From contig CAYJDM010000004.1 in NCBI GenBank assembly GCA_964368945.1, forward strand, positions 8,577 to 72,576: DNA of 64,000 bases, in the 5' to 3' direction. Source of the stretch: an uncultured Candidatus Saccharibacteria bacterium. GTDB taxonomy: Bacteria > Patescibacteriota > Minisyncoccia > Phycocordibacterales > CAIZLB01. The position numbers and the translations under genes were made by a program. The notes below the pieces were generated by a model that saw nothing but the letters and a program-made list of their open reading frames with translations, made no database searches and was not told the DNA's origin. Position 1 is the first letter of the stretch; each line of letters starts with the position of its first letter. Of this stretch, positions 693-27,188 are shown piece after piece.

Positions 693-2249
693 CTATCTCA
701 CGATTTCAGTTGGTTCCATCAGTCTTAGGCCTGCTCTTTGGCCATCGATTGCCATATCAACCTCATCCAAATCATTCTCAATCGCCTCCTTGATTTCCTT
801 TTCCTCCTTTGACAGAGTGCGCTCATGTCGAGTGCGCTGCAATATTTCAAGGTGTCTTTCAAGGCGCTTTTTAAATGTGAGGAGCACCTTTAGATTGTCT
901 CCATTGGACAAAGCCGCGCGCTTCTTGAATCGATTGCGAAGCTTGCTATAGTGAAGCCCGAATTCGAATGCGGCGAAGAGAAGCAAGATAAGCACGGACA
1001 AGATCAGTATCGCGAAGTAAAGCGCAGGCACGCTGAACGATCCTATCGAAATCAGCATCGGCTGCTTTGCTGAGGTGCTTGGCAGTGCGGATTCCGATGG
1101 ATGACTCTCGACAGCCGATACGTTGAAAGCCGCGAGCGACTCGACAGAATTGCCGGCACGGTCAATCGCAACGAGCCTTACCGTATTTTCCCCAGGAGTA
1201 TTCACGGCCATGCTGTATGCGCCATTTATGAATTCAGAAGATGGAACCTTTTTTATCAAAATATCATTTACATATATTTCGTAATAATCCAGACCTGAAG
1301 TTTCATCAACGATATCGGCAGCAATGCTCAATACCTTATTCTGGTCATCATAAGAAAATACGACATCGTTCTTTTTAGGAATCGTATTGTCTACCTGAGC
1401 TATATACGTGCTTGTCGGACCCCATGTCCCGTCTTTGCGCGCCCGAACCTTGAAATACCATGTTCCGTCTTTCAGATCCTGCGCAGACTTTTCATTTATG
1501 GCCGGACTATGCATTACTCGAGCTGAGCCGGATGCATTATTGTCAATTCCTGTCTGTACCGCATCTGCTCCCTTGGGTACCTTCCATCTGAATAGAGGGC
1601 TTGAATCCTTGTACCATGATTCTTGAGAGGGATGGGTCGGCGATGTGATTTGCAAGGCCAACGTTGAAGGCGCCGGTGCCGCGGCAGGTGTCGGTGCCGG
1701 AGCTGGCGTCGGCGTTGGAATATTTTCGACTACAGGCTCGCTGCTCTTGGCAATGGTTATTGTTCTGCCTTTTTTGCTCGTGAGAACATCCGTACCGAAT
1801 CCGTCATTTGCGCGAACAGCGGCATCAGAGAAAAATATATCCGCCTGACCAGCCTTTTTTGCCTTTACCACGATGGATAAGGCCGTGCCGTTTGAGCCGC
1901 CAAACCCAGGAGTCGGAACGCCTCCATTGAAGCTGATCGTTCCGGAAGGGTTTGAATATGCAGGCTCTTCCACCCATAGTGAGAAAACAGAATTGCTCTT
2001 GCTCACCGATACCACTTCCAATAAGTCGGACGGAAAAGCAATTCTTGCCTCAGCATTGTTTATGGCCTGTCCTTCGGCATTCACGACAATGGTCAATGTA
2101 GCTATTCCTCCGGGCGAAAGCGTTGCCGCGCTGGAAGTGATTTGCAAAGTGGCAGCATCCGCTTTGCTGCTGATGAAAAAGAATGCGCTGAGGAAAAAAG
2201 CCGTCGTCCAGAATCGAATGTTATTTTTTGTAACTTTTTTTATAAGCAT
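693..2249 (-). CDS. membrane-anchored cohesin-domain protein (scaffoldin-like)
   Basis: N-terminal signal peptide, then a domain of about 140 aa with a cohesin-like beta pattern (TLTIVVNAEGQAINNAEARIAFPSDLLEVVSVSK...). A PT/PA linker and a Big/FN3-like module follow. A C-terminal TM helix (ALYFAILILSVLILLLFAAF) and a charged coiled-coil tail close the protein. It lies immediately downstream of the dockerin-bearing giant gene. Confidence 0.55.
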   Translation of the reverse strand: MLIKKVTKNNIRFWTTAFFLSAFFFISSKADAATLQITSSAATLSPGGIATLTIVVNAEGQAINNAEARIAFPSDLLEVVSVSKSNSVFSLWVEEPAYSNPSGTISFNGGVPTPGFGGSNGTALSIVVKAKKAGQADIFFSDAAVRANDGFGTDVLTSKKGRTITIAKSSEPVVENIPTPTPAPAPTPAAAPAPSTLALQITSPTHPSQESWYKDSSPLFRWKVPKGADAVQTGIDNNASGSARVMHSPAINEKSAQDLKDGTWYFKVRARKDGTWGPTSTYIAQVDNTIPKKNDVVFSYDDQNKVLSIAADIVDETSGLDYYEIYVNDILIKKVPSSEFINGAYSMAVNTPGENTVRLVAIDRAGNSVESLAAFNVSAVESHPSESALPSTSAKQPMLISIGSFSVPALYFAILILSVLILLLFAAFEFGLHYSKLRNRFKKRAALSNGDNLKVLLTFKKRLERHLEILQRTRHERTLSKEEKEIKEAIENDLDEVDMAIDGQRAGLRLMEPTEIVR

Positions 2250-2853: not shown

Positions 2854-2860
2854 GGTTTAA

Positions 2861-5800
2861 TTATTGTCTCTTGAATAAGGCAGGATTTTTACCCCACTGA
2901 TAAAGAAGTATCGAGAAATCGACTGAGTTGACTTGCTTGTCTGTATTCGTATCTACGCAGGCATTCTTATATGGTCCTGCAGTCTTCCAGAAAGCAAGCA
3001 TGATTGAGAAGTCTATTGAATTCACCTTGCCATCGCTATTGAGGTCTGCGCCCACGCATGCTCCGTTTGGCTTTGTCACGACTGGCGGAATTATGATGCT
3101 CACGCCTCCGCTGCCGCCGCCACCTCCTCCGCCACCGCCGCCAGTAGGTGGCTCAACGGGAGTGTCTGCCACTGCCGTGAATGACTGATGTGCGACTGAT
3201 GAATCTGATCCGAACTGAACATTGATATGGAAGAAGTAATTGCCAGCAACAGGAACCGTAGAGTTGAGGATCGTATCGAAGTTTTCTCCAGGCTGAATGA
3301 GTTTTGCAGCCGTTGAGCTAAAGACATCATCTCCGCTTCCGCAAAGATTGACAGCGCTGTCCGTTACGCACCATGTATATTGATATTCATATGCAACCGA
3401 ACCTTCATTGGTAATGCGAACCGCTGTACCGATTGTCGGAGTGATCAAATCGCTGAAGCTCTGGATAAGAACCTGCGCTGGCGCACCCGGCGTCGCGCTT
3501 ACAACAGAAGACGATGTTCCCGTACCGACGATGTTCTTGGCGTACACTCTAAAGTCATATGAATTGTCATTCGACAGGCTTGTTACTGTCGCATTAGGAA
3601 CCGTGCTCACGCCATCGGCAAATGTCGTCCATGTTCCGCCTATCGTCAGCTTGTATTGGATGACGTAATCAGTTAGCGCCGAACCGCCATCTGAAACAGG
3701 GGCCGTCCATGAAAGATCTATGCTGGAATCCCCGACAACAGCAGCAAGGTTTATCGGCGCTCCAGGCACGCTTGCCGGCGTCACGCCGGCGCTAGAACCA
3801 GAAGAAACGCTTGTACCAATAGCATTGGTAGCAGTGACGGTGAATGTATATGTTACTCCATTCGTCAATCCTGTGACTATGGCATTTGTAGTTGTGCTAT
3901 TGACCGTAATGCCGCCAGGACCCGAAGTGACGGTGTAGCCCGTGATCGCTGATCCTCCATTCGAAGCCGGAGCTGACCAGGTAACGCTGACGCTCGTATC
4001 GCCAATAGTTCCTGCGACATTCGTTGGCGCATCAGGCACGGTTGCAGGAGTGACGGAATTGCTTGCAATCGATGCGGTGCTCGTACCTGCGGCATTCGTC
4101 GCGGTCACGGTGAACGTATATGCCTGGCCGTTCGTAAGGCCAGTAATCGTGATCGGCGATGATCCTGCAGATGCAATATGTCCGCCGCTTGATGTGACTG
4201 TGTAGTATGTGATCGCAGAGCCGCCATTAGATACAGGAGGAGTAAAAGTAATCGTTGCCTGTCCATTTCCGCTAGTTGCTGTTCCGATAGTCGGAGCATC
4301 AGGAACTGTCGCCGGTGTAACTGAATTGCTTGCTGCCGATGCGGTGCTCGTACCTGCTGCATTTGTCGCAGTTACCGTGAATGTATATGCAGTGCCGTTT
4401 GTCAGGCCAAGGACCGTGATCGGCGAAGATCCGCCGGTTGCAGTGTGGCCTCCGCTTGAAGTTACCGTATATGAAGTGATAGCAGAACCTCCGTTGCTTA
4501 CAGGCGCCGTGAATGTGATCGTTGCTTGGCCATTTCCTAGAGTGGCTGTGCCAATTGTTGGAGCGCCAGGAACAGTTGCTGGCGTGACGGAATTTGAAAC
4601 TGCAGAAGCTGTGCTCGTGCCGGCTGCATTAATTGCGGCAACGGTGAACGTATACGTTGTTCCATTTGTAAGTCCCAAGACCGTGATAGGCGAAGATCCG
4701 CCGGTTGCAGTATGGCCGCCGCTTGATGTGACGATATAGCCAGTGATTGCAGAGCCTCCGCTATTCAAAGGCGGAGTGAATGTGATCGTCGCTTGTCCAT
4801 TTCCAGCTGTCGCTGTGCCGATCGTTGGCGCGAACGGAACGGTTGTCGGCGTTACGGAATTGCTTGATGCTGATGCGGTGCTTGTGCCAACTGCATTCGT
4901 AGCTGTCACAGTGAACGTATACGCCTGGCCGTTTGTAAGGCCCGTTATTACGATCGGAGAGCTTCCGCCCGTAGCGCTAAAGCCGCCAGTGTTTGAAGTG
5001 ACCGTATAGTACAGAATATTTGAACCGCCATTGTTCACCGGAGGAGTGAATGTAATTGTCGCTTCGCCATTTCCCAATGTCGCAGTGCCGATTATTGGTG
5101 CATCAGGAGTTGTTGCAGGAGTGACAGAATTGCTTGTCGGCGATGGCGTGCTAGTTCCGAATGCATTGCTTGCCGTTACCGTGAACGTATATGTTGTTCC
5201 GTTTGCAAGGCCTGTGATCGTGATCGGCGAGCTTCCACCTGTCGCGCTAAATCCTCCAACGTTAGATGTGACTGTGTAGTACGTAATTGCAGAACCTCCG
5301 TTTGATACAGGCGGAGTGAATGAAACCGTAGCTTCACCGTTTCCTCGAACTGCAGTTACGCCAGTAGGCGCTCCAGGCACTGTAATAGGGGTAACTGAAT
5401 TCGTGGCAGTTGAAGCAGAGCTTGTTCCTACGGCATTTGTCGCTGTGACTGTGAAATTATATGTAGTGCCATTTGTGAGGCCGGTAACTATTACTGGCGA
5501 TGCTCCACTGTATACGACAAACCCTCCAGTGTTTGAAGTCACCGTATAATACAAGACTGATGAATACCCATCGCTCGCCCCTGGAGTGAATGTGATAGTC
5601 GCTTCCCCATTGCCAGCAGTTGCAGTGCCGATCGTTGGCGCATCCGGAACAGTTGCTGGAGAAATTGAATTGCTAGCTACTGATGCAGTGCTTGTTCCTA
5701 CAGCATTCGTTGCAGTTACGGTGAATGTATAAGCCTGGCCATTCGTAAGACCAGTAACGATAAGCGGAGATGAAGCGCCGAATGCTGTCAGCCCTCCGAC

Positions 5801-8800
5801 ATTTGATGTGACCGTATAGCCAGTGATCGCTGAGCCGCCATTGCTTACAGGCGCCGTGAATGTAATTGTCGCCTGGCCATTTCCTCGAACTGCCGTTACG
5901 CCAGTCGGCGCATCAGGCACTGTCGCAGGCGTTACGGAATTTGTCGCGCTAGATGCAGAGCTTGTTCCGATTGCATTTGTTGCCGTAACAGTGAACGTAT
6001 ATGCAATGCCGTTAGTGAGGCCAGTAACCGTAATCGGCGAAGATCCGCCGGTTGCCGTATGCCCTCCGCTCGAAGTTACCGTATATGAAGTGATAGCAGA
6101 ACCTCCATTGCTGACTGGTGCTGTGAACGTGATCGTCGCCTGGCCATTTCCGCCAGTCGCCGTTCCGATAGTCGGAGCATCTGGCACAGTGGCCGGAGTT
6201 ACGGCATTGCTTGTTGCAGAAATCGTGCTAGTGCCAGCGCTATTTGTCGCTGTCACAGTAAATGTATACGTTACCCCATTCGTAAGTCCTGTGACTGTAA
6301 TTGGCGATGAGCCACCTGTCGCTGTAACTCCGGTATTTGATGTAACCGTATAGTATGAAATCGCTGCTCCGCCGTTTGATACTGGAGGAGTAAACGTAAT
6401 TGTCGCCTGGCCATTTCCATCAACTGCGCTTATGCCCGTTGGAGCGTCAGGAACGGTCGCAGGCGTTACTGAGTTCGTAGTAGCAGAAGCCGAGCTTGTT
6501 CCATATGCATTAGTCGCTGTGACCGTGAATGTATATGCCTGACCATTTGTAAGGCCCGTTACTGTGATTGGCGAAGATCCTCCGTATGCAATAAATCCTC
6601 CGACATTCGATGTGACAGTATAATATGTGATTGCTGACCCGCCATTAGATACTGGCGGAGTGAATGTGATCGTCGCCTGGCCATTGCCACCTGTTGCAGT
6701 GCCGATAGTCGGAGCATCAGGGATTGTCGCGGGAGTTACCGCATTGCTCGTTCCTGATGATGTGCTTGTTCCATATGCATTTGTCGCAGTAACCGTGAAG
6801 GTATATGTTACGCCATTTGTAAGGCCAGTAATTGTGATTGGTGACCCACCGCTTGTCGCGCTAAATCCTCCAGTATTTGAAGTCACCATATACGACAAGA
6901 TCTGTGATCCGCCAGTATTGCCAGGCGCCGTGAATGTAATTGTCGCCTGGCCATTTCCAGCAAGAGCAGTGACGTTAGTCGGAGCATCTGGCGCAACCTG
7001 ATAATTGAAATATGGATACGTAGTTGTCTCTGCGATCTTCCAAACAGGAAGAGTGCTGAAATCCCAGTTTGTAAATGTAGCCTGCTGCTTCATTTGAACA
7101 GTGGTTTTTCCTGCGGTATTTGTTGGTGTCGTCGCGTTTCCAGCGCCATCAGTTTTGCCCGATGTCGTCGTATCCCAATAGCTTGATGCCCATGTTCCGC
7201 TCACTGGGTTTCCGACGATTCCTCCAGCATACTGAAGCGACGCTGATGAGCCGGTAGCGCCAGTCGCGCCATCACTTCCTCCAGAACCGCCAGTACCCTT
7301 TGAACCAGCGGCACCACCGGCAGCTCCTGATGTCTTCGTCGCAGTTGGAACGCTTGATGAATATGTATTTGTAACTAGAGAAGTCGCATGGCTACCCAAA
7401 AGTCCTCCGACTAAGGCGCTCGCGCCAGCGCCTCCGACGCCTCCGTTTGCTCCGTTGCCATTTGCTCCAACGCTACCTCCTCCTGCCGCTCCTCCGTTTC
7501 CGCCATTTCCTCCTTTGCCTCCAAGAGCGGGTGATCCGGCAGTCGCAGTAACACTACCCAATGAATATGCATTGGTAATGACTCCTGTATTATCACCGAC
7601 GAGGCCTCCTCCCGTCACGGCTCCACCCGCGCCTCCGGTTGCGCCTGCGGCTCCGACTTGACCGGCACCGCCGTTTCCTGAGCCGCCCGAGCCGCCAACT
7701 CCTCCATTTCCGCCATTTCCTCCGATGCCTCCCGTTGCGCCATTTCCGCCTGTCATTGTTACAGTCGTCGAAGCATAGCTATTATTGAAAGATCCGGTCG
7801 TAAGGTTTGAGCCGATAAGTCCGCCGGCAATGCTTGCGCCTCCGACACCTCCAGCGCTACCTGCGACACTCGTACCGCCATTTCCTCCTGCAAGCGTTCC
7901 TCCATTTCCTCCATTGCCGGACAGTCCTCTGACGCCAGCAGTTCCGCCATTTCCCCCCGTTGTTGTAACGCTGCCTGCAGTCCAAGAGTTTGAAACCACT
8001 CCGGCAGTAAAGTTATATCCGATAAGGCCGCCGACATGCAATGCTGCGCCGTTTCCAGCATCAGAAGTCGCGCCTTGGTTGCCTCCATTTCCACCCGCGC
8101 CAGTCGCCCCTCCGTTTCCTCCGTTGCCGGCATTTCCTCCATTGCCCGCTGCGCCGCCATTTGCTCCGGTAACAGAAACGGCGCCAACTGAATAGACAGT
8201 TGCGATCGTGCCAAGGTTATAGCCCAGAAAACCTCCGACATATTTAATTCCGCCCACAGTACCGACTCCGCTCGCGCCAGCATTCCCGCCGGCTCCTCCA
8301 GTTCCAGCTGATGCGCCAGCTCCTCCCTGTCCGCCATTTCCGGCATTTCCTCCATTACCTCCGTTGCCACCGCTCAAAGTAACATTTCCTGTCGCATAAG
8401 AATCCTTGATCACTCTTGTAGTTTCATTGCGTGCGACAAGCCCTCCTCCGTACGCAAAACCTCCAACGCCTCCAGCGGTCGCTGCTCCGCCAATTCCTCC
8501 GTTGCCACCAGCGCCAGAAGTTCCGGCGCCACCGTTTGCTCCATTTCCGCCCGTTCCTCCCTGTCCGCCATTTCCAGCAACTCCAACCACATTTGAAGTA
8601 GAGTATGAATATGTCTGAATAGTTCCGTCATTCCTTCCGATAAGTCCGCCGACAAATACAGTTCCCGCAGAACCAGCAGCTCCGCCTGCACCCGCTGCAC
8701 CTCCAGCCGCAGCAATGCCGGAAGTTCCGCCATTTCCTCCAGTTCCTCCTTGTCCGCCATTTCCGCTCGTACCGCTTACAGTGGCGCCTATTGCATAGCT

Positions 8801-11800
8801 TGTCGTAACCGTATTCGCAGCGTTTATATTGTAGCCAATAAGTCCGCCTGCATAGCTATCTCCACCGGCGCCTGCAGCGCCTCCAATCGTTCCCGCTCCT
8901 CCATTCCCCGTGCTCAAAGACGCATCTGCGCCATTTCCTCCAGTTCCTCCATTTCCTCCATTTCGTGCAAGCGATGTCACTGATCCGGCAGCATAAGAAT
9001 TCAAGATAACTCCAGTCGCTGCATTGATTCCGACAAGTCCTCCTGCATATGAAGCGCCGCCTGCGCCCATTGCACCCACAGTTCCTCCTGCAGCACCAGT
9101 CGTAGCTGTGCCGCTATTGCTTGCGCCTCCTGCGCCTCCGTTTCCTGCCGTGCCAACATTGCCGCTCGTCGAAGTAACGTCTCCTGTAGCATATGAATTG
9201 CTTTCAATAATTCCTCCGCCTGCGAGACCGGCTGATCCGTTTGTTCCGACAAGTCCTCCCGCATACGATGCGCCTCCGGCACCCGAAGCGCCTCCTGCTC
9301 CTCCAACGCCTCCAATCGAATTAGTTCCACCGGCGCCTCCAATTATTCCAGCGCCTCCATTGCCGCTCGCACCTCCCGTCGCGCTAACTGCCCGCGTAGA
9401 ATAATTCGCTGTCACTTGAAAGTTATTGCTCGCAGTCGCATTGATTTGAGCAATCAATCCGCCGGCATACGCAGCGCCTCCGGCTCCAGTTGGGCCAGAT
9501 GCACCAGTTGAACCTCCTGCACCAGTTCCGCCGGCAGCAGATACGCCAGCATTTCCGCCAGTACCAGAAGCTCCTCCGATCGCAGTCACAGTTCCAGTGG
9601 CTGAATAATTATTCAAATAGTGAATGAATCCAGTCGTGACGCTCCCGAGCCCGATCAATCCGCCAGCATCCGCTTCACCGCCAATGCCCGATCCGCCGCC
9701 CGCTCCGCCTGCGCCTCCAATAGTTCCGCCTACGCCGCCATTGCCACCAGTGCTTCCAGAAGCGCCGATTCCACCCTGAGCGATTACAGCTCCTGTTGCA
9801 AATGAATTAATGATTCCGCTTCCCGCTGGGTTAACGGTAATTCTGTGAATACCGATAAGTCCGCCTGCATATGCAGCGCCTCCTGTCGCCGGTGTCAATA
9901 CGGATCCGCCGCCCGCGCCTCCAGCCGCGCCAGTCGCTGAGTCACCTCCTGTGCCGCTCGTACCCTGATTGCCCGCATCTCCTCCAGTCGCGCTTACATC
10001 ACCCGTAGCATTTAGCGTAAGGAAATCAATCGATCCTGATGTGAGGTTGCTCAGTCCAACTAATCCGCCAGCGACCGCTTCACCGCCGATTCCTGCAACG
10101 CCGCCCAAGCCTCCTGTCGCACCAGCATGCGTACCGCTTCCAGTGGAACCATCTCCTCCGGTTCCTCCCTGACCGGCATTTCCTCCATTGCCTGCGACAA
10201 CTTCAACATCGCCCGTAGCATTAGAATTTGATATACGCATCACTTGGGTTGTACCGCTGATTCGTCCGACTAATCCGCCGCCATATGCAGCCGCTCCTGC
10301 TCCTCCATTTCCACCAACTCCAGCAACCGCTGCAGTACCTGACGACTGACTTGCTCCAGATGTTCCTCCCGTTCCTCCCTGTCCGCCATTTCCTCCATTG
10401 CCACTAGTGACAGAAATATTTACTGTTGAATATGAAAATCCTTGAATCGTACCGATTGCCGATAGGAAATCTCCTACAAGCCCGCCAAAGGCACGGATAC
10501 CTCCCGCGCCTCCGGCTCCGCCGACAGAACCGGCTCCGCCATTATTTGCTCCGACTCCCGCGCCTCCGTTTCCGCCATTGCCTCCATTTCCTCCATTTCC
10601 TCCAGCCTGCTCAGTTCCTGAAATAGTCAATGTATCTGAATAAGACGAAGTAATTATTCCTGAGCTAAATCCGATAAGGCCTCCAGCATAAGTTCCGCCC
10701 GCTGCGCCACCAATACCAGCGGTACCCAAACCTCCCGCGCCGCCAACGCCGCCAGCAGCAAGCCCTGAACCGCCATTGCCAGCATTGCCGCCATTGCCAG
10801 GAGTTCCGCCTGTGATTACGATATTGCCTTTTCCTGAAGCGGAGTCGTAACTTGCATACGATGAAATGACATCAGAGATTGCATAGCCGACAAGACCGCC
10901 TGCGTATACGATACCTGATGCACCTCCGGCGCCAGCAACGCTTCCTGCCGCACCCGTATTAGCTCCAGCAGAAATACCCGCTGCGCCATTTGCGCCAGAC
11001 CCCCCCGTCAGGACGAGCGATGTTTTCGAATATGATTCCGCTTCAATAACGCCCGTCGTATATCCAGCCAGCCCGCCGACATATATGGCACCGCCAGCGC
11101 CACCGTTAGATCCGGCGCCTCCGACTCCATATATAGCAGTACCTGTACCAATTCCACCCGTTCCGCCGAGAGCAGATGCGCCTCCATTTCCACCAGTTAC
11201 GGTAACAGTTCCAGTTTGTGCATAGCTCGAGGTGATTGTTCCGAGGATGTTTTGACCGACCAGTCCTCCAGCAAATATAACCGCGCCGGCGCCACCTGCT
11301 CCAGCCGCTCCGCCGGCGCCACCGATATGGTTCGTACCAGCTGATCCGTTTCCACCATTTCCACCCACTCCTCCATTGCCTCCATTACCGCCAAGCGCAG
11401 TAACGCTTGTCGTTGCATACGAATTTGTAATAATTGCCAAAACTGCAGTGACGCCATTTCGTCCGGCCAACCCTCCAACAGACACCGTTCCGCCAACTCC
11501 TCCGTTAGCACCTGCGCCTCCGGCTGCTGCAGTACCGTTTGTAATGCTTCCTGATGCGCCTCCATTTCCGCCGGCGCCTCCATTGCCTGCATTTCCTCCT
11601 ATCGCCGTAACGGTTCCGCCTATATGATATGTATTCAAAATCGCAGCGGTGCTATCGCCAACCAAACCTCCGGTAAAATTAGATCCGCTGCTTGCGCCGA
11701 TGGTCCCTGCAGTTCCCACGGTGCCCGCCACCGAAGAACCTCCAGCGCCTCCTGCTCCTCCTGCGCCTGAATTTCCTCCATTACCAGAAGTTCCCTGCAC

Positions 11801-14800
11801 CGATCCTGTTGTATATGAATTTGAGATTTCTCCTGAAGTCACAAAGCCGATCAATCCTCCAGTATATGATGATCCCCCAATTCCTGCACCTCCGCCCGTT
11901 CCGCCGATTCCACCTACCTGGCCTGCTCCGCCCTGTGCACCAGCTCCGCCATTTCCTGCATTGCCACCATTACCAGCAAGGACTGTGACATTTCCTGATG
12001 CCGATGTTGATGCAATCGCTACAAGCGAGTTCGTAAAACCGATCAGGCCTCCTCCATATGCAAGTCCGCCGGCACCGCCTGTTCCGCCGTTTGCTCCTGC
12101 GCCTCCAACCACTGCGCTTATCGCAGCCGCACCAGCGCCTCCCGCCTGACCATTTCCTCCGTTTCCGCCCGTTACGGTAACATTGCCTGTCGCATAAGAA
12201 TTAACAATATTTTGAGCGGAGTTAGAGTTATACCCTTCGAGCCCACCTCCATACGCAGCCAATCCGGCTGCTCCTCCTGCACCACCAGCGCCGCCGACAC
12301 TTCCTGCTGCGCCATTTACTCCAGCAACTCCTGCGCCTCCATCGCCTCCGTTTCCTGCTGTCACGACAACATTGTTTGTCGAATATACCGTATCAATCAG
12401 TACGGATGCGAGTGAGCTATAACCGATTGCTCCTCCAGCATATACCGGACCAATCACACCGCCGGTTCCTCCAGCTCCTCCAACTCCATTTTTTCCATTG
12501 CCAGAACCCCCCGCTCCACCGGCGCTTCCTGCCCCGCCGGTTCCTCCATTTCCGCCAATAGTAACCGTGATCGTGCCTCCGATCGCGCTAGACTTTTGAA
12601 TATTTCCATTTCCCTGACCGGCAAGTCCGCCAATGTATACGGCACCTCCAGAAGATCCGTTACCGCCCGCTCCGCCAATGCCTCCCGCATGACCTCCGGT
12701 TCCAAGAGATCCGTTTCCGCCAATTCCGCCCGCTCCTCCATTTCCTCCATCTCTTCCAAATGCAGTAAGGCTTCCTGTAACAACCGAATCAACGATGACG
12801 CCAGAGTTATCTCCAGCAAGTCCTCCTATATATGCAGCTCCGCCGATGCCGCCAGCTCCTCCAGTTCCGGCTGTGGCCCCAGCGCCCGCAGCTATATTTC
12901 CTGATGCTCCGGCATTTCCTCCCGTACCTCCCGTTCCGGCGACTCCGCCTGCCGCAGTAATCGATGTAATCGTATATGTCACATCATGAATTACCCCGGC
13001 ATTAAATCCGAGTATTCCACCGCTCGCAGCGAGTCCGCCGTTTCCTCCAGCGCCGCCGATGCCGCCAGCGCCGCCAATTGCGCCCGCAGTGCTTCCTCCA
13101 TTTCCTCCATTGCCTCCGTTTCCACCATTTCCGGCAGTACCGCCAAGAGAAGCTACTGTTCCTGTTGTATTTGGAATTGAAATCGTCGTGCCCAGCACGC
13201 TGTCATTGCCGATCACTCCTCCGGCATACGCTGCTCCACCGTTCAATCCAGCTCCGCCAGCGACTCCTGCAACCCCGACAACGCCAGCTCCGCTCGCTCC
13301 TCCATTTCCTCCATTGCCTCCGTTTCCTCCATTTCCTCCATTTGCAAATACGCTTCCATTTGCATATGAATCAGATGCAACCGCACCATTGTTCAATCCA
13401 ATCAATCCGCCAGAAGCAGCAAGTCCTCCTGAAAGCCCGACGCCGCCAGCTATGCCCGTACCTCCGGTGAATGCGCCAGTGGACGTGCCGCCAGAAGCAC
13501 CCGTGAGTCCATTTGCCCCAGAACCTGCGGTCGAGGTCGCATTACCGCTTGCATGTGATGCGCCTTGAATGCTTCCGTTTGCTGCATTAAAACCAACAAG
13601 CCCGCCTGCATACGCTCCTCCACCGAGGTTTGTCGCCGTAGCTCCAGCAGCGCCGCCCGCGCCTCCTGCAGAGGTGCTGCTTGATCCGCCATTTCCACCC
13701 GCGCCGTTTGAGCTGCCGGCGCCTCCATTTGCAATTACATCTCCTGTAGCATATGAATTATTTATTATGCCGGTATTTGCCCCGACAGCACCGCCCGCAT
13801 AGCTCGGAGCGCCTACGAGACCCGCGCCGCCAGTTCCGCCGGCAGCTCCATAACCGCCAGTACCTCCATTTCCACCCGCGCCCGAAGCACCAGAAGTCGA
13901 GCTCGCAAGTATGAAAGCGTGAGAATTGCTTATCGTACCTGCAGAGTTGAAGCCAATCAATCCGCCGACGTATCCGATTGCGCCGAAGGCCCCAGAACCG
14001 CCAGTTCCGCCAGTCGCACCTAATGCCCCAGTTCCCGCGACTCCTCCTGCGCCGCCAGTCGCTCCGGCGCCGCCAGCACTTCCAACCACAGTCGCTGATC
14101 CTGACTCAATATATGTATTGGCAATAATCGCAGTATTCAAACCCGCAATGCCTCCGGCATATGCAACTGCACCAGCGCCACCTGCACCTCCGGTTGCGCC
14201 AGCAGCGCCAGTGCTCGAAGACCCTCCCGATGCATTGCTTCCGCCAAGACCTGCGGCACCTCCGTTTGCTCCAGCAGAAGCGGTTGCCAAAATAGTTCCG
14301 CTTGCATAAGAATTCTGAATCGTATTCGTATTATTACCTACGATGCCCGCAGCATAGGCGGTGGCACCCGCGCCTCCTGCTCCTCCAGCTCCGCCAATTG
14401 CGCCAGATCCGACAAATGTTCCGGCAGAGGCGCCTCCATTTCCGCCGATCCCTCCAACCTGTGCAGTTCCTGCCGTTGAAGTCACATTTCCAGTCGAATA
14501 TGAAGAAGCTTGAATTACGCCGGCGCTTTGTCCTGCAACTCCTCCAGCTGTTGCCACGGCGCCAGCTCCTCCAGTTCCGGCAATAGCGCCAACGCCTCCG
14601 GCAAAGTTTGTTCCGCCGACTCCGCCATTTCCTCCATTGCCCGCAACTCCTCCATTGCCGGCGTTCACGATAATATTTCCCGTATTATACGTTCCAGAAA
14701 TTACTCCCAAGATAATATTTCCAGCGACCCCTCCTGCGAATGCCGCGCCGCCAGTTCCGCCGGCAGCTCCCGCTCCGCCAGCTCCTCCGGTACCAGCTGA

Positions 14801-17800
14801 GCCCACGCCTCCATTTCCTCCATTGCCTCCGTTTCCTCCGTTTCCTCCTTGAGCCGTGATCGTGCCGGTTGAATATGAATTTGAAATTTCTCCATTATTT
14901 AAAAATCCGACGACTCCGCCAACATAAGCAATACCTCCAGTGAGTCCCACGCTGCCAGCGACGCCTGCAACTCCTGCGGTATTCGTATACCCCGCTCCGC
15001 CATTTGCGCCAGCTCCACCTGCACCCGAAGTTCCTGTTACATCAACTGTCGAATACAGATTAAGAAGCGATGTTCCTGTATTGTATCCAACCGCTCCTCC
15101 GGCATATACGATTCCTCCGACGATTGCAGCACCTGCTGCACCGGCAGTTCCTCCTGTCCAAGCGCCTCCTGCTCCGCCCGCACCCGCAGAGCCTCCAGCT
15201 CCAGCAGTACCGTTTACATCCCCAGTCGTATGATAGCTATCAACGATGGCGAGCGCATTATTTCCTGCGAGTCCTCCTATATATAGTATGCCTGCCGCGC
15301 CTCCTGTTCCACCGGCCAGACCCGCGAGTCCTGTCTGAGCCGCTACGCCAGTTCCGCCCGCGCCTCCTGCTCCAGCAGTGCCGTTTACCGCATTTGTAGA
15401 GTGTGCAAAACGAATCGTTCCCGTATTGTTTCCAACGAGTCCGCCGGCATACGATCCAGAAACTGCCGCAGAGCCTCCTATTCCGGAAGCTCCGCCTGCG
15501 CCCGATGTTCCAGCTGAACCCTTTGCACCTCCCGATCCGCCAGTGCCGCCGACTCCGCCATCGCCGCCGACTGCAGATACGAGTCCGCTTAATGAATTAG
15601 CCGTGATGATCGATCCTAGATTTATTGCGGACAATCCGCCTGCGAACGCAGCACCGCCCGCTCCGCCGGCTCCTGCTGCACCTCCGACTCCGCCAGTTCC
15701 TGTAGTCGTAAGTGATGCGCTGCCTCCCGCGCCTCCAGCTGCTCCATTTTTTCCATCAGAACCAGTAGCAGTGACTGCGCCAGTAGAATAGACGTTTACT
15801 ATCGAACCATTGATGAAGCCAGGCGTATTATTTTGTCCAACCAATCCTCCGGCATATGCAATTGCGCCAGCTCCGCCCGCTCCACCAATCGCAGATACGC
15901 CAGATGCTGCAATCGCTGACGAACCTGCAGCAGAAGCGCCGCCCGCGCCTCCTGCAGAGGCATTGCCAGCAACTCCTCCGATTGCCTGCACATCCCCAGT
16001 CGCATAGCTTCCATTTTCGATAGTGCCTGAATTGTTTCCAACAAGACCACCGACAAATACCGTTCCTGCCGCGCCGCCAGTAGCTCCAGCGCCGCCGAGG
16101 CCGCCGATATTTGCGCCGCCCACGCCAACTCCGGCATTGCCTCCTGTACCTGCAGTTCCAGCATTGCCTCCTGCGCCGCCCCTTCCGGTAACATTTCCCG
16201 TCGCAGCAGAAGACACGATTGTTCCTGCCTGTACCCAGCCAATAAGCCCACCAACATATGCAAGGCTACCTGCACCGGCGACTCCCGCCGCACCTCCTGC
16301 TCCTCCAATGCCGGTACCCACACCTGCTACTGATCCATTGCCTCCATTACCTGCATTTCCGCTTGAGCCACCAGCGCCTCCTGCACCTGTAACAGTTGCA
16401 GAACTTGTAGCTGCAGTGATGCTTCCCTGCTGAGAATATCCGGCAAGCCCTCCAACATATGCAACTCCTCCTGTTGCTGCAGCATTGCTTGCTGCCGCTC
16501 CGCCAGGACCTGCGATGCTCGAACCCGTCGTAATATTTCCTGCATTGCCACCGTTTCCTCCATTTCCGCCGGCGCCTCCCGCACCGTTAATGTTTCCACT
16601 GATACTTACATTCGTAATTGTTCCCGTATTGTATCCAACCACTCCTCCCAAATATAATACGCTTCCCGCCGTACCAGCACCGCCAGCCGTACCGGCTGAA
16701 GGCCCGGGTCCGTTTGTTCCGTTTACGCCATTGCTGCCCGCCGTACCAGCAGTGCTCGTCGCGCTGATTGAAACGCCAGAGAGAGTTACGTTTTTTATAA
16801 GATTAGTAGAATATGCAAAAAGACCTACATAGCTCGAAGTCGTCGTACTTATATATAGGTTGCTGATCGTAAAATTATTTCCATCAAAGATACCAGCGAA
16901 AGGAGTCGAAACGTTTCCGATCGGATCGAATCCTGAGCCAGATGACCAGCCGGTAGTTGTCGCCGCATCAATATCATTGTTGAGCTTGAATGAGCTAGAC
17001 AGGTTCGTCTTCATGCCCTGCAGTCCGTATACATCGAAAACCAAGAAAGGATCCGCGCTATTCCCAATGCCTGTATAACGTCGAAAAGTTCCCGCAGTGA
17101 CGTTGAAGCTTCCGCTTACAGTCAGTATATTCGTTCCGGGATTCGTCGCAGTAAAAGTCGCAGCAGATGTCTGAGTATAATTTCCAGACTGTCCGCCTGA
17201 GTTCGTCACGGTAAGGTTTGCGTTTTGCAAAATCGTGCCAGCATAACCATTGATGGCAAAAGATCCGACCGTTGCAGCAGTATCAATAGTAATGATAGTT
17301 GAGGCCGCACCTGAAGATGCATCGAAAAATACATTCGTCGTGGCATCGGGCAGGTTGCCAGCGCCAGGAGTTCCGTTTGATACCGTTGCCCAGTGGTTTG
17401 CCGCATCAGACCAATTTCCCGTACCTCCTACCCAGTATGCATTCGCTGGCGGATCAGTCACATAGTCGACATCGACATTTCCAATTATCTTCAGGTCAAA
17501 GACATCCGTAGGCGTTGCAAGGCTCGAAAGGTTGATGCGGTACTTTCCATCATGATCAATATAAAAAGTTCCGACAAGCGTACCGTCCTGTGCATAAGCC
17601 TCGATAGTCGCCGGAGCATTGGCATCTGTCGGCCGAGCATAGAGCGTAATGTCATTCGTATTATTGAGGAGCTTCTCAAAGGTCACTCGAATATACTGCC
17701 CGTTGAGCAAGCTCACATAATTCTGATCAAGCGAGCCAACGCCAGGAAAAATATCTTCCAAAGCATTTTTATGCTCATCGAGGCGCAATGCATCTGAGAT

Positions 17801-18775
17801 CAAGATGATTTCAAATGTCTGCGTCGAAAGATGCGGGACTATCCATGCGACATGATCCAAGTAGCCATTTCCGTCTTCATCAGTTGCGACGAACTCCATT
17901 TCTTGGTTCTCATTATTCTGCCATTTGATTTTTATCTTGCCCTCTTCCCCAACTTTGAATATTTCTGGAATCTCTATTTTGACTGGAACATTCGTCATAT
18001 GCTCGATCAAGTCTTGTTCCGGCGTAGATGCGACTACGACGATTTTTCCAGTAGCGCTATTTTCTTCTGTGATAGTCGGCAATGACGATGTCGCTGTTGA
18101 TGTGGCCGTCGATGTCGCAGTGACCTCTGAAATTGATGAGGTCGTAGAGGCTGTAGAAGTCGCGGAAGTTTCTGCTTCGTTAGAAGTCGCGACATCCGAT
18201 GTCGTTGAAGCCGCATCAGTCGAAGGCTCAGTTGCAGAAGATTGAGTCGGAGTTTCAGTTTGATCTTCTATCGGTGTCGAAGTCGAGGTTGATGTAGAAG
18301 TAGAAGTAGAAGTAGAAGTAGATGCAAAGGCGGATTCTGATGTCGATGTTGAGGCCTGCTGCGTATCTGAAGTGGCGGTCCCTTCGGATGTAGTTGGAGC
18401 CGTCGAAGTGTCCTCAACAGAAGCGGCGTCAGGGACCGATTCGGGAACGGATTCAGGATCAGGATCAGAATCAGAAACCGGATCGACGCTTTCAGATGTC
18501 TCATCTGGAGCTGTTACATTTTCCACCGTCGGAGTCGATGGTTCAGAAATATTATTTTCAGATGGCTCTGATACAGTCGGGCTTGATGTTTCTGGAGCAG
18601 CTGCTGGTTCTGATGATGGAGCCGCATCAGGAACCGGTGCAGAAATTTGCGGCGCGCTAACATCTGATGCAGGAGCTGCACTTTCTTCAGCAAATGCTGT
18701 TGAGAAAAAACCGCAAAGCATTATTGCTGCGATTAGTGAGAAAGATATTTTTTTGAGACGAGTACTCAGTTGCAT
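2861..18775 (-). CDS. giant secreted surface protein (5,304 aa) with C-terminal dockerin
   Basis: A single uninterrupted ORF. It has a signal peptide (MQLSTRLKKISFSLIAAIMLCGFFSTAFA), then an acidic S/T/P/E-rich region with an (ST)n tract. About 50 Gly-rich repeats follow (...YAGGLVGxNxGxIxNSYxTGxVxxxGGxGGxGG...), then 13 FN3-like repeats (PDAPTIGTATGGNGQATITFTPPVSNGGSAITYYTVTS...TGLTNGQAYTFTVTATNA.GTS). The C-terminal ~60 aa show the dockerin type-I duplicated Ca-binding motif (GADLNSDGKVNSIDFSIML / VDTNTDKQVNSVDFSILL). Confidence 0.85.
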   Translation of the reverse strand: MQLSTRLKKISFSLIAAIMLCGFFSTAFAEESAAPASDVSAPQISAPVPDAAPSSEPAAAPETSSPTVSEPSENNISEPSTPTVENVTAPDETSESVDPVSDSDPDPESVPESVPDAASVEDTSTAPTTSEGTATSDTQQASTSTSESAFASTSTSTSTSTSTSTSTPIEDQTETPTQSSATEPSTDAASTTSDVATSNEAETSATSTASTTSSISEVTATSTATSTATSSLPTITEENSATGKIVVVASTPEQDLIEHMTNVPVKIEIPEIFKVGEEGKIKIKWQNNENQEMEFVATDEDGNGYLDHVAWIVPHLSTQTFEIILISDALRLDEHKNALEDIFPGVGSLDQNYVSLLNGQYIRVTFEKLLNNTNDITLYARPTDANAPATIEAYAQDGTLVGTFYIDHDGKYRINLSSLATPTDVFDLKIIGNVDVDYVTDPPANAYWVGGTGNWSDAANHWATVSNGTPGAGNLPDATTNVFFDASSGAASTIITIDTAATVGSFAINGYAGTILQNANLTVTNSGGQSGNYTQTSAATFTATNPGTNILTVSGSFNVTAGTFRRYTGIGNSADPFLVFDVYGLQGMKTNLSSSFKLNNDIDAATTTGWSSGSGFDPIGNVSTPFAGIFDGNNFTISNLYISTTTSSYVGLFAYSTNLIKNVTLSGVSISATSTAGTAGSNGVNGTNGPGPSAGTAGGAGTAGSVLYLGGVVGYNTGTITNVSISGNINGAGGAGGNGGNGGNAGNITTGSSIAGPGGAAASNAAATGGVAYVGGLAGYSQQGSITAATSSATVTGAGGAGGSSGNAGNGGNGSVAGVGTGIGGAGGAAGVAGAGSLAYVGGLIGWVQAGTIVSSAATGNVTGRGGAGGNAGTAGTGGNAGVGVGGANIGGLGGAGATGGAAGTVFVGGLVGNNSGTIENGSYATGDVQAIGGVAGNASAGGAGGASAAGSSAIAASGVSAIGGAGGAGAIAYAGGLVGQNNTPGFINGSIVNVYSTGAVTATGSDGKNGAAGGAGGSASLTTTGTGGVGGAAGAGGAGGAAFAGGLSAINLGSIITANSLSGLVSAVGGDGGVGGTGGSGGAKGSAGTSGAGGASGIGGSAAVSGSYAGGLVGNNTGTIRFAHSTNAVNGTAGAGGAGGTGVAAQTGLAGLAGGTGGAAGILYIGGLAGNNALAIVDSYHTTGDVNGTAGAGGSAGAGGAGGAWTGGTAGAAGAAIVGGIVYAGGAVGYNTGTSLLNLYSTVDVTGTSGAGGAGANGGAGYTNTAGVAGVAGSVGLTGGIAYVGGVVGFLNNGEISNSYSTGTITAQGGNGGNGGNGGNGGVGSAGTGGAGGAGAAGGTGGAAFAGGVAGNIILGVISGTYNTGNIIVNAGNGGVAGNGGNGGVGGTNFAGGVGAIAGTGGAGAVATAGGVAGQSAGVIQASSYSTGNVTSTAGTAQVGGIGGNGGASAGTFVGSGAIGGAGGAGGAGATAYAAGIVGNNTNTIQNSYASGTILATASAGANGGAAGLGGSNASGGSSSTGAAGATGGAGGAGAVAYAGGIAGLNTAIIANTYIESGSATVVGSAGGAGATGGAGGVAGTGALGATGGTGGSGAFGAIGYVGGLIGFNSAGTISNSHAFILASSTSGASGAGGNGGTGGYGAAGGTGGAGLVGAPSYAGGAVGANTGIINNSYATGDVIANGGAGSSNGAGGNGGSSSTSAGGAGGAAGATATNLGGGAYAGGLVGFNAANGSIQGASHASGNATSTAGSGANGLTGASGGTSTGAFTGGTGIAGGVGLSGGLAASGGLIGLNNGAVASDSYANGSVFANGGNGGNGGNGGNGGASGAGVVGVAGVAGGAGLNGGAAYAGGVIGNDSVLGTTISIPNTTGTVASLGGTAGNGGNGGNGGNGGSTAGAIGGAGGIGGAGGNGGLAASGGILGFNAGVIHDVTYTITSITAAGGVAGTGGTGGNAGASGNIAAGAGATAGTGGAGGIGGAAYIGGLAGDNSGVIVDSVVTGSLTAFGRDGGNGGAGGIGGNGSLGTGGHAGGIGGAGGNGSSGGAVYIGGLAGQGNGNIQKSSAIGGTITVTIGGNGGTGGAGSAGGAGGSGNGKNGVGGAGGTGGVIGPVYAGGAIGYSSLASVLIDTVYSTNNVVVTAGNGGDGGAGVAGVNGAAGSVGGAGGAGGAAGLAAYGGGLEGYNSNSAQNIVNSYATGNVTVTGGNGGNGQAGGAGAAAISAVVGGAGANGGTGGAGGLAYGGGLIGFTNSLVAIASTSASGNVTVLAGNGGNAGNGGAGAQGGAGQVGGIGGTGGGAGIGGSSYTGGLIGFVTSGEISNSYTTGSVQGTSGNGGNSGAGGAGGAGGSSVAGTVGTAGTIGASSGSNFTGGLVGDSTAAILNTYHIGGTVTAIGGNAGNGGAGGNGGASGSITNGTAAAGGAGANGGVGGTVSVGGLAGRNGVTAVLAIITNSYATTSVTALGGNGGNGGVGGNGGNGSAGTNHIGGAGGAAGAGGAGAVIFAGGLVGQNILGTITSSYAQTGTVTVTGGNGGASALGGTGGIGTGTAIYGVGGAGSNGGAGGAIYVGGLAGYTTGVIEAESYSKTSLVLTGGSGANGAAGISAGANTGAAGSVAGAGGASGIVYAGGLVGYAISDVISSYASYDSASGKGNIVITGGTPGNGGNAGNGGSGLAAGGVGGAGGLGTAGIGGAAGGTYAGGLIGFSSGIITSSYSDTLTISGTEQAGGNGGNGGNGGNGGAGVGANNGGAGSVGGAGGAGGIRAFGGLVGDFLSAIGTIQGFSYSTVNISVTSGNGGNGGQGGTGGTSGASQSSGTAAVAGVGGNGGAGAAAYGGGLVGRISGTTQVMRISNSNATGDVEVVAGNGGNAGQGGTGGDGSTGSGTHAGATGGLGGVAGIGGEAVAGGLVGLSNLTSGSIDFLTLNATGDVSATGGDAGNQGTSGTGGDSATGAAGGAGGGSVLTPATGGAAYAGGLIGIHRITVNPAGSGIINSFATGAVIAQGGIGASGSTGGNGGVGGTIGGAGGAGGGSGIGGEADAGGLIGLGSVTTGFIHYLNNYSATGTVTAIGGASGTGGNAGVSAAGGTGAGGSTGASGPTGAGGAAYAGGLIAQINATASNNFQVTANYSTRAVSATGGASGNGGAGIIGGAGGTNSIGGVGGAGGASGAGGASYAGGLVGTNGSAGLAGGGIIESNSYATGDVTSTSGNVGTAGNGGAGGASNSGTATTGAAGGTVGAMGAGGASYAGGLVGINAATGVILNSYAAGSVTSLARNGGNGGTGGNGADASLSTGNGGAGTIGGAAGAGGDSYAGGLIGYNINAANTVTTSYAIGATVSGTSGNGGQGGTGGNGGTSGIAAAGGAAGAGGAAGSAGTVFVGGLIGRNDGTIQTYSYSTSNVVGVAGNGGQGGTGGNGANGGAGTSGAGGNGGIGGAATAGGVGGFAYGGGLVARNETTRVIKDSYATGNVTLSGGNGGNGGNAGNGGQGGAGASAGTGGAGGNAGASGVGTVGGIKYVGGFLGYNLGTIATVYSVGAVSVTGANGGAAGNGGNAGNGGNGGATGAGGNGGNQGATSDAGNGAALHVGGLIGYNFTAGVVSNSWTAGSVTTTGGNGGTAGVRGLSGNGGNGGTLAGGNGGTSVAGSAGGVGGASIAGGLIGSNLTTGSFNNSYASTTVTMTGGNGATGGIGGNGGNGGVGGSGGSGNGGAGQVGAAGATGGAGGAVTGGGLVGDNTGVITNAYSLGSVTATAGSPALGGKGGNGGNGGAAGGGSVGANGNGANGGVGGAGASALVGGLLGSHATSLVTNTYSSSVPTATKTSGAAGGAAGSKGTGGSGGSDGATGATGSSASLQYAGGIVGNPVSGTWASSYWDTTTSGKTDGAGNATTPTNTAGKTTVQMKQQATFTNWDFSTLPVWKIAETTTYPYFNYQVAPDAPTNVTALAGNGQATITFTAPGNTGGSQILSYMVTSNTGGFSATSGGSPITITGLTNGVTYTFTVTATNAYGTSTSSGTSNAVTPATIPDAPTIGTATGGNGQATITFTPPVSNGGSAITYYTVTSNVGGFIAYGGSSPITVTGLTNGQAYTFTVTATNAYGTSSASATTNSVTPATVPDAPTGISAVDGNGQATITFTPPVSNGGAAISYYTVTSNTGVTATGGSSPITVTGLTNGVTYTFTVTATNSAGTSTISATSNAVTPATVPDAPTIGTATGGNGQATITFTAPVSNGGSAITSYTVTSSGGHTATGGSSPITVTGLTNGIAYTFTVTATNAIGTSSASSATNSVTPATVPDAPTGVTAVRGNGQATITFTAPVSNGGSAITGYTVTSNVGGLTAFGASSPLIVTGLTNGQAYTFTVTATNAVGTSTASVASNSISPATVPDAPTIGTATAGNGEATITFTPGASDGYSSVLYYTVTSNTGGFVVYSGASPVIVTGLTNGTTYNFTVTATNAVGTSSASTATNSVTPITVPGAPTGVTAVRGNGEATVSFTPPVSNGGSAITYYTVTSNVGGFSATGGSSPITITGLANGTTYTFTVTASNAFGTSTPSPTSNSVTPATTPDAPIIGTATLGNGEATITFTPPVNNGGSNILYYTVTSNTGGFSATGGSSPIVITGLTNGQAYTFTVTATNAVGTSTASASSNSVTPTTVPFAPTIGTATAGNGQATITFTPPLNSGGSAITGYIVTSSGGHTATGGSSPITVLGLTNGTTYTFTVAAINAAGTSTASAVSNSVTPATVPGAPTIGTATLGNGQATITFTAPVSNGGSAITSYTVTSSGGHTATGGSSPITVLGLTNGTAYTFTVTATNAAGTSTASAASNSVTPATVPDAPTIGTATSGNGQATITFTPPVSNGGSAITYYTVTSSGGHIASAGSSPITITGLTNGQAYTFTVTATNAAGTSTASIASNSVTPATVPDAPTNVAGTIGDTSVSVTWSAPASNGGSAITGYTVTSGPGGITVNSTTTNAIVTGLTNGVTYTFTVTATNAIGTSVSSGSSAGVTPASVPGAPINLAAVVGDSSIDLSWTAPVSDGGSALTDYVIQYKLTIGGTWTTFADGVSTVPNATVTSLSNDNSYDFRVYAKNIVGTGTSSSVVSATPGAPAQVLIQSFSDLITPTIGTAVRITNEGSVAYEYQYTWCVTDSAVNLCGSGDDVFSSTAAKLIQPGENFDTILNSTVPVAGNYFFHINVQFGSDSSVAHQSFTAVADTPVEPPTGGGGGGGGGGSGGVSIIIPPVVTKPNGACVGADLNSDGKVNSIDFSIMLAFWKTAGPYKNACVDTNTDKQVNSVDFSILLYQWGKNPALFKRQ
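3485..6995 (-). repeat. tandem array of 13 FN3-like coding repeats (~270-nt period) inside the giant gene
   Basis: The near-identical ~90-aa protein repeats are mirrored by the series of similar antisense ORFs in the ORF track (MIAEPPL.TGAVNVIVAWPFP...). Confidence 0.8.
7100..16800 (-). repeat. Gly-rich (GGxGGxGG / GGLVG) coding repeat array inside the giant gene
   Basis: Dozens of ~55-aa repeats with consensus YxGGL(V/I)GxNxGxIxxSYxTGxV followed by poly-GG(A/N/S/T)GG. The antisense strand reads as Pro-rich shadow ORFs. Confidence 0.75.
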
Positions 18776-18877
18776 TTATGGCCTTAATTATAACAGCAAA
18801 GTGTGGATTTTTACGCTCAGAACGGTACTTTTTCATATATATTTTGGGGATAAACCAGGATATTTTTTTGCTATAAT

Positions 18878-20008: not shown

Positions 20009-20068
20009 GATTATGTTGATATTAGAATTTCTTAAAAACCGTTAGTAAAAAACATGTCAGTTTGGATA

Positions 20069-22393: not shown

Positions 22394-22398
22394 GATAA

Positions 22399-25223: not shown

Positions 25224-25224
25224 T

Positions 25225-27186: not shown

Positions 27187-27188
27187 GA

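Follow-up and report, generated by a model that had tools for sequence, protein, structure and literature searches.

How can a secreted protein of 5,304 amino acids (aa) be held on the cell when its N-terminal signal peptide is the single hydrophobic segment found by hydropathy? This question is raised by a three-gene module on contig CAYJDM010000004.1 (8,577-72,576, forward strand). The stretch of 64,000 nt is called the window here, and all positions follow its numbering. The module occupies ~18 kb, in a genome that is very small, and comprises the gene of the giant protein and two smaller genes, named A and B. Open reading frame (ORF) calls confirmed the three frames, all on the minus strand, at the positions given by an original prediction made from the sequence alone. 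The genes are tightly packed: 7 nt separate the stop of the giant gene from the start of A, and A shares 29 nt with B. The three genes form one operon of a Parcubacteria/Paceibacteria-type bacterium within the Candidate Phyla Radiation (CPR). The giant is probably a surface fibre that is tethered non-covalently, its dockerin docking onto the membrane cohesins A and/or B. The original prediction proposed a self-contained, cellulosome-style anchoring system without a glycoside hydrolase. Domains, topology and conserved linkage support such a system, in which the binding is presumed.

The C-terminus of the giant carries a type-I dockerin of the textbook kind that had been predicted. It is a duplicated DxNxDxxVNSxDFSI(M/L)L segment (aa 5244-5300), and Pfam Dockerin_1 (PF00404) matches above its cut-off of 22.9 bits, with scores of 30.0 and 33.5. 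The segments DLNSDGKVNSIDFSIMLAFW and DTNTDKQVNSVDFSILLYQW have the canonical calcium-loop-plus-helix layout, with a Cys before each. The halves read DLNSDGKVNSID followed by FSIMLAFW and DTNTDKQVNSVD followed by FSILLYQW, and they start 31 residues apart. The duplication of a ~22-residue segment, made of a 12-residue EF-hand-like calcium loop and then a helix, is conserved in 65 unique orthologous dockerins. When the last 70 aa of the giant were compared with PDB sequences, 19 distinct entries matched at E<=1, and all were dockerins or dockerin-bearing enzymes. The top match was 1DAQ (1.2e-4), and 2Y3N_B spans both segments. A generic EF-hand was considered and is excluded by the Dockerin_1 score and by PDB matches that are exclusively dockerins. 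As predicted, a poly-Gly hinge precedes the dockerin, and a poly-Gly run lies at the equivalent place in all five orthologues read. The Cys residues are found before both calcium loops in 26 of the 65 unique dockerins, before neither in 37 and before one in 2. Their co-occurrence suggests a lineage-specific disulphide stapling the dockerin halves and fits a real, structured dockerin.

The two smaller proteins seem to supply the matching cohesins. Protein A is laid out as signal peptide, cohesin, Asn/Asp-rich linker, transmembrane (TM) helix and KKSYKK tail. Protein B is laid out as signal peptide, cohesin, Pro-rich linker, two immunoglobulin (Ig)-like domains, TM helix and cytoplasmic helical tail. 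The signal peptide and membrane anchor announced for each protein were recovered by hydropathy and as model helices, the TM helix being put at aa 182-200 in A and aa 410-428 in B (wider limits in Table 1). The cytoplasmic tail announced as coiled-coil for one of them is helical in the model of B. Neither protein has surface-layer homology (SLH) or LPXTG features; both have instead a C-proximal TM helix and a tail, which is basic in A. By hydropathy and on the models, A and B are thus type-I membrane proteins with the cohesin displayed outside the cell. AlphaFold2 (AF2) models were built on family alignments, with a predicted local distance difference test (pLDDT) of 80 for B and 84 for A. They form a nine-stranded flattened beta-sandwich (jelly-roll) that is superimposable on solved cohesins. 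In a Foldseek comparison with the PDB, the top 18 matches of A were all cohesins, and only 2 of its top 30 were not. The best match of B was the cohesin-FN3 construct 2W1N (2.9e-11), and its target-normalised TM-scores (TMt) with type-I cohesins were 0.65-0.76. Cohesins thus come first for both proteins, which argues against unrelated beta-sandwiches, and the cohesin-like reading of the original prediction stands.

Moreover, A and B are by sequence paralogues in their N-terminal domain. Pairwise BLASTP aligned their cohesin domains with E 3e-6 and 26% identity over 137 aa. Paralogy was judged by this comparison, as the first hhalign run between the families was dominated by an A-B fusion member (P0115). 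The motifs N-V/A-x-E-G, W...P, F-x-G-G-x-P-x-G-F and N-D-G-x-G-T are invariant and common to both proteins. In solved type-I complexes (1OHZ), the dockerin-binding face of the cohesin is the 8-3-6-5 sheet. Residues that are invariant in the A family as well as in the B family map to predicted strands 3, 5, 6 and 8 and to the 8-9 loop, with equivalence of the strand numbers being assumed. As for the cytoplasmic tail of B, it has no Pfam or NCBIfam match. In the sampled closer homologues of B, positions L463, R477, E483 and L494 are conserved and the tail follows the motif KKRLEKHLExLQxTRHxRxLTKEEKxIKEAIExDLDEVD.

The original prediction called for a comparative search, and the three-gene arrangement does recur in related genomes. 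The B family counts at least 429 homologues and the A family 113. The cohesin subfamily holds 5,700 representatives at 50% identity with E<=1e-3, and 2,817 with E<=1e-10. Among species-representative genomes, 227 encode a relative of B. In the first five loci found via B homologues, the giant, or its C-terminus where truncated by the contig, was followed by A and then B in all five. The complete giants of these loci measured 5,194-5,419 aa; one was split into fragments and one was ended by its contig. At every locus with available DNA, four of them and a near-duplicate of one, the upstream ORF ended with a poly-Gly run and the same dockerin. Subsequently, 78 loci were retrieved and scanned as stop-to-stop ORFs with purpose-built hidden Markov models (HMMs), loci with at least 1.3 kb upstream being counted as informative. 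They are titled Nomura-, Falkow-, Wolfe-, Adler-, Yanofsky-, Taylor- and Kaiserbacteria or Paceibacterota metagenome-assembled genomes, and some of the automated third-party annotation (TPA) labels look unreliable. A dockerin ORF followed by A and then B was found in 59 of 68 informative loci, of which 52 were clean and 7 had a long A form or an A-B fusion. Protein A was present in all 68 dockerin-bearing loci, and in 67 of 68 dockerin-bearing ORFs the dockerin ended at most 7 residues before the stop. Database auto-annotation names relatives of the module 'dockerin type I repeat-containing protein [Minisyncoccia]' and 'fibronectin type III domain-containing protein', and NCBI gives one B homologue the name 'cohesin domain-containing protein [Candidatus Paceibacterota]'.

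Gene order of this kind may also arise from functional adjacency without docking. A and B could be independent surface or adhesin proteins, or export and assembly factors of the cargo. The dockerin could then be a calcium-dependent folding module, a module binding glycan or cell wall, or the ligand of a cohesin on another cell. We regard this as improbable. The divergent cargos measure only 309-1,436 aa; MG2-like domains were found in 7 of the 10 examined and GLUG in none, and a terminal Dockerin_1 match above cut-off was present in all 10. A cargo body that varies next to a terminal dockerin kept beside A and B is the signature expected of a docking relationship.

Rates of evolution were compared in 62 non-redundant triads. 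Mean pairwise identity was 67% for the dockerin, 54% for cohesin B, 36% for the Ig-like domains of B, 35% for cohesin A and 22% for the cytoplasmic tail of B, which is the most divergent part. The dockerin and cohesin B are thus the slowest-evolving parts. In partial Mantel tests controlling for the Ig domains of B, dockerin distances correlated with those of cohesin A (r 0.36, p 0.001) and cohesin B (r 0.42, p 0.001). They followed those of the cytoplasmic tail of B far less closely (r 0.12, p 0.065). Overall, the dockerin diverged in step with both cohesins more than with a control domain. These values are weakly consistent with co-evolving interfaces.

Several points weigh against the tether. 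The co-variation evidence is weak, as shared phylogeny and differences in rate confound mirror-tree signals. The Pfam profiles proposed for checking gave a divided answer: Dockerin_1, fn3 and Glug scored above cut-off, but Cohesin did not. With Pfam Cohesin (PF00963; cut-off 24.1 bits), protein B reached 15.6 bits in an alignment covering profile positions 3-121 of 139, and A had no match to this family. Searches of PDB sequences with A, B and their family profiles returned no cohesin, the matches being chance antibody-like ones alone. The cohesin identity therefore rests on the fold and on family-level HMM matches; Pfam Cohesin was matched by 8 of 33 sampled B homologues (E<=0.01, best 3.7e-6) and DUF7743 by 12 of 33. 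Furthermore, in 9 of the 68 informative loci B lacks both an upstream dockerin ORF and A, which means that it can occur outside the triad. Finally, the likely role of the fibre is attachment or contact; for host attachment this is a plausible guess, and role and fibre geometry alike are read from domain types.

The loci with B alone are L007, L008, L035, L046, L067, L071-L073 and L078. Two tandem B genes are found in L007. At L008 and L035, B follows a different ORF of ~200 aa that is conserved and secreted. In the related locus L005, which is not among these nine, an ORF of 2,433 aa (5337-12638) follows B directly and has no Pfam or dockerin-HMM match.

Which of the two cohesins serves the dockerin is a further question. 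One protein may be the receptor and the other an accessory. In this case, B alone would bind the dockerin, and A would bind a cell-wall polymer, B or a host ligand, or act as competitor or assembly chaperone; the converse assignment is also conceivable. The occurrence of B without A, the better conservation of cohesin B and its slightly better tracking of the dockerin speak for a single receptor. On the other hand, A and B share the invariant motifs W..P, F.GG.P.GF and NDGxGT despite their low identity, and A accompanies the dockerin at every locus that has one. In addition, the dockerin halves are ~64% identical in the consensus of orthologues. Halves that are near-identical make two binding faces possible, either in a dual mode or for two cohesins at once. 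We consider a single receptor possible but doubtful.

Fusions of A and B recur, with ~12 among the top 150 representatives of an exhaustive search. P0115, P0315 and the fusions of loci L031 and L053 are single polypeptides of 813-872 aa. P0115 retains the TM helix of A, a short basic loop and the signal/TM segment of B. With these TM segments kept, the fusion would form a membrane hairpin that places both cohesins outside, side by side. A bolder proposal is a dedicated heterotrimeric anchor, in which A near the membrane and B on its stalk would grip the near-symmetrical dockerin from both sides at once. The helices of B would relay load or host contact inward, and lineages would swap cargos of ~300 to >5,000 aa on one and the same receptor. 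Such an anchor would replace sortase and SLH systems and serve as a modular platform for surface display and host contact, specific to the radiation. In this complete form, the proposal is speculative and rather unlikely.

For the tether that we favour, the following sequence of events can be proposed. The giant would be exported by Sec, and its dockerin would fold with calcium. The dockerin would then insert into the cohesin ectodomain of A and/or B at the outer face of the cytoplasmic membrane, and the fibre would be held by its C-terminus. The hinge, the 13 fibronectin type III (FN3) modules and the ~47 GLUG/Gly-rich units would push the Ig-like, Ser/Thr-rich N-terminal end outward. A would keep the dockerin near the membrane; B would keep it on a stalk made of the Pro-rich linker and the two Ig-like domains. 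The cytoplasmic helices of B may oligomerise the protein or couple it to an intracellular component. We infer the dockerin-cohesin contact, the cohesin that serves it, the stoichiometry and the geometry of the fibre. Judged roughly by the usual size of such domains, its length is probably on the order of 100 nm.

The body of the giant is that of a long repeat protein. The Ser/Thr-rich region would be the distal end of the fibre, provided that the C-terminus is tethered. In the globular region that follows (aa 241-706), Big_6 scores just below its cut-off (26.5 vs 27.6 bits), and no Pfam match besides this one was obtained. The Gly-rich core has 3,160 aa, with 31-38% G and 13-22% A. A repeat HMM built from the giant itself found 46 positive and 3 weak units, ~60-68 aa apart, in aa 707-3867, in good agreement with the ~50 repeats predicted. 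The units are of the type xYxGG(L/V)xGxNxGxIxNSYxTGxV, with spacers rich in (GGX)n between them. Scanned whole against Pfam, a 3,104-aa Gly-rich core gave no match. This negative is due to query length or compositional bias, as 300-aa pieces recovered Glug (PF07581): two ~300-aa segments exceeded the cut-off of 20.5 bits, one with 31.5 bits in 5 stretches and the other with 21.4 bits in 4. Next to the core, Pfam fn3 (PF00041) matched in tandem above its gathering score (E 1.7e-109) with 13 stretches, which is the number of modules predicted. The FN3 array has twelve linker motifs, one per ~90 aa, and its DNA is a tandem array with a period of 267 nt and 68% identity. The domain between the last FN3 module and the hinge is probably beta-rich and is also conserved in the C-termini at other loci. 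An assembly artefact was considered as the source of this long ORF and rejected. Repeats that are only ~68% identical in DNA, together with orthologues of 5,194-5,419 aa on other contigs, make an artefact or collapse unlikely.

As for the role of the fibre, attachment, be it to a host or to a substrate, is the most plausible because of the episymbiotic lifestyle reported for cultivated relatives. Alternatively, the tether could be real and the fibre a structural part of the envelope, such as an S-layer-like coat, a spacer or a sheath. Throughout the lineages of Parcubacteria, the module is found widely and is well conserved, as a housekeeping envelope part would be. Moreover, Pfam and NCBIfam scans of the giant detected nothing recognisable as a domain for ligand binding or enzymatic activity. 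However, the cargo bodies differ strongly by lineage, from 309 to >5,000 aa and with different domains. Such variability is seen more typically in adhesins or contact proteins exposed to diversifying pressure than in a core lattice of the envelope. The architecture of GLUG and FN3 also resembles that of fibrillar adhesins. A purely structural fibre therefore seems fairly unlikely.

The use of cohesin and dockerin modules calls to mind a miniature cellulosome or another polysaccharide-degrading complex, and the NCBIfam CelK model touches the giant, in its dockerin alone. Nevertheless, Pfam scans found no glycoside hydrolase, carbohydrate-binding module (CBM) or other carbohydrate-active enzyme (CAZyme) domain in the cargo or its neighbours, and the predicted lack of a glycoside hydrolase is borne out. 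In addition, each receptor has one cohesin, with no multi-cohesin scaffoldin, and there is no SLH or sortase anchor. A degradative complex is highly improbable and was dropped, neither enzyme, CBM nor scaffoldin features being present.

Known systems offer partial parallels. In the cellulolytic Firmicute Clostridium thermocellum, SLH modules fix OlpA and OlpC to the cell wall, and the proteins that they capture are enzymes. OlpA and OlpC likewise use a single surface-fixed cohesin to capture a C-terminal type-I dockerin, and their complexes (3UL4, 4DH2) belong to the best structural matches of A and B. Here, in contrast, the anchor is a TM helix, and two paralogous receptors share an operon with one giant non-enzymatic fibre. 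The non-cellulosomal cohesins of C. perfringens (2W1N, 2VO8, 2O4E) and Archaeoglobus fulgidus (2XDH) are also among the top fold matches. In the C. perfringens, A. fulgidus and Ruminococcus bromii systems, secreted enzymes are linked to each other or to scaffoldins. To our knowledge, none of them has a membrane receptor pair dedicated to a multi-thousand-residue repeat fibre. The R. bromii amylosome (PMC4611034), the glycosidase/toxin complexes of C. perfringens and the A. fulgidus cohesin are non-cellulosomal, as is the present system. The original prediction called cohesin-dockerin pairs that tether a multi-thousand-residue repeat protein poorly described outside cellulolytic Firmicutes. Non-cellulosomal pairs as such were already known there, from C. 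perfringens and A. fulgidus, but the system-level arrangement in Parcubacteria looks new. What looks new is a membrane-anchored, operon-encoded cohesin pair with interchangeable dockerin-tipped cargos in Parcubacteria, not the cohesin-dockerin principle. A full-text literature search, whose coverage lacks most subscription journals, found no paper describing the dockerin-A-B triad.

Long tandem-repeat stalks that project a distal tip are likewise found in GLUG/FN3 fibrillar proteins and in giant adhesins, both LPXTG-anchored Gram-positive and SiiE-type, and SiiE Ig arrays are among the Foldseek matches to the Ig-like domains of B. The known fibrillar and giant adhesins are anchored covalently by sortase or held by outer-membrane or type I secretion system (T1SS) retention modules, not by a dockerin on membrane cohesins. 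Ultra-small bacteria provide further comparisons. [quoted passage not shown] They are similar to the present giant in being extracellular proteins of ultra-small, host-dependent bacteria with dockerin-type calcium-binding repeats and a proposed role in attachment (bioRxiv 10.1101/2023.11.21.568195). The present giant differs in its one terminal dockerin and in a membrane anchor provided in trans by cohesin proteins. In Southlakia epibionticum, a Saccharibacterium, SEML1_0315 is an essential dockerin-domain envelope protein for which host-glycan adhesion or degradation was speculated (PMC10633639). By its description, it is a Patescibacteria dockerin protein like the giant, and a cohesin partner or operon was not reported there (PMC10633639).

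How CPR/Patescibacteria with tiny genomes attach to hosts is a central open question. Apart from type IV pili, we know of almost no defined surface machinery in Parcubacteria. The logic proposed here, a terminal dockerin inserted into membrane cohesins, is simple and testable. If the binding is true, giant surface fibres would have a membrane anchor that is non-covalent and encoded in trans. The dockerin, cohesin A and cohesin B would be handles for pull-downs, labelling and assignment in cryo-electron tomography of uncultured cells. Cohesin-dockerin biology would then extend beyond enzyme assembly to the architecture of the cell surface in a major radiation that is uncultivated.

The coordinates of the module are collected in Table 1. 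The promoter candidate lies ~100 nt upstream of the giant gene and is the sole promoter-like site near the trio in a consensus scan. Upstream, the trio is flanked by copper-resistance genes. Downstream of B, an ORF starting at ~519 on the minus strand looks by sequence like a metallo-hydrolase. These flanking genes are unrelated to the trio, and the unit is therefore taken to be three genes. A motif search found no second dockerin motif in the rest of the window. The NCBIfam scan gave no model for the giant, A or B, and an exact-match look-up found neither the sequence of the giant in the protein collection nor a contig recorded for that of B.

Table 1 Features of the giant fibre gene and of genes A and B (window numbering)
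Feature	Residues (aa)	Position	Strand	Basis
Giant fibre gene, dockerin-bearing cargo	5,304 in total	2861..18775	(-)	ORF and translation
Gene A	210 in total	2221..2853	(-)	ORF
Gene B	518 in total	693..2249	(-)	ORF
Candidate sigma-70-like promoter, TTGGCA-16-TATTAT		18873..18900	(-)	Consensus scan 10/12; consensus match alone
Giant: signal peptide (...STAFA/EES)	1-29	18689..18775	(-)	Sequence; hydropathy peak aa 10-28
Giant: Ser/Thr/Ala/Pro/Glu-rich low-complexity region	30-240	18056..18688	(-)	Composition S 22%, T 18%, A 13%
Giant: N-terminal globular region, Ig-like domain(s) then lead-in to GLUG array	241-706	16658..18055	(-)	Weak Big_6
Giant: ~47 GLUG-core/Gly-rich units	707-3867	7175..16657	(-)	Purpose-built repeat HMM, Pfam Glug, composition
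Giant: 13 tandem FN3 modules	~3925-5098	3482..7003	(-)	Pfam fn3
Giant: domain between last FN3 and hinge	5099-5205	3161..3481	(-)	No Pfam match; conserved in orthologues
Giant: poly-Gly hinge G10SGG	5212-5224	3104..3142	(-)	Sequence
Giant: C-terminal type-I dockerin, two calcium-loop-plus-helix segments	~5238-5304	2864..3064	(-)	Dockerin_1, PDB matches
A: signal peptide	1-25	within 2221..2853	(-)	
A: cohesin-fold ectodomain	26-152	2398-2778	(-)	AF2 model, Foldseek
A: TM helix	182-204	2242-2310	(-)	Hydropathy and model helix
B: cohesin-fold domain	33-166	1752-2153	(-)	AF2 model, Foldseek
B: two Ig-like domains	200-377	1119-1652	(-)	
B: TM helix	406-432	954-1034	(-)	Hydropathy and model helix
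B: helical cytoplasmic tail	433-518	696-953	(-)	AF2 model, ~85 helical residues

Elsewhere in the window, a block of low GC content (~40-45% vs ~50% elsewhere) extends over ~19,500-36,180 and ends at a tRNA-Gln (36108-36179). The block has the look of a genomic island that has integrated. It contains a copper P-type ATPase (22399-24678), an HMA/DsbD_2 protein, a cupredoxin and a DUF305 protein, as well as a ParB-N6/N4 DNA methylase (27189-28511), a transposase-type helix-turn-helix protein and a large serine recombinase (30868-32187). HamA (34717-35700, minus strand; Pfam E 1e-60) and then an 848-aa DEAD/ResIII helicase (32184-34730) also lie inside it, and from their sequences the two are predicted to be the gene pair of a Hachiman-type anti-phage defence system.

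Several RNA elements were recorded as well. A third tRNA-like gene at 63375-63445 on the minus strand reaches 49 bits with Rfam and is absent from the ARAGORN output. A group I intron (61325-61648, minus strand; Rfam 53.8 vs 50 bits) is overlapped by a LAGLIDADG homing-endonuclease ORF (61560-62351), and no rRNA or tRNA exon was detected around it. A LOOT RNA motif lies inside the putative island (29887-30029, minus strand; 50.9 bits vs a gathering score of 46.4), and a weak second LOOT-like match (61306-61386) overlaps the group I intron.

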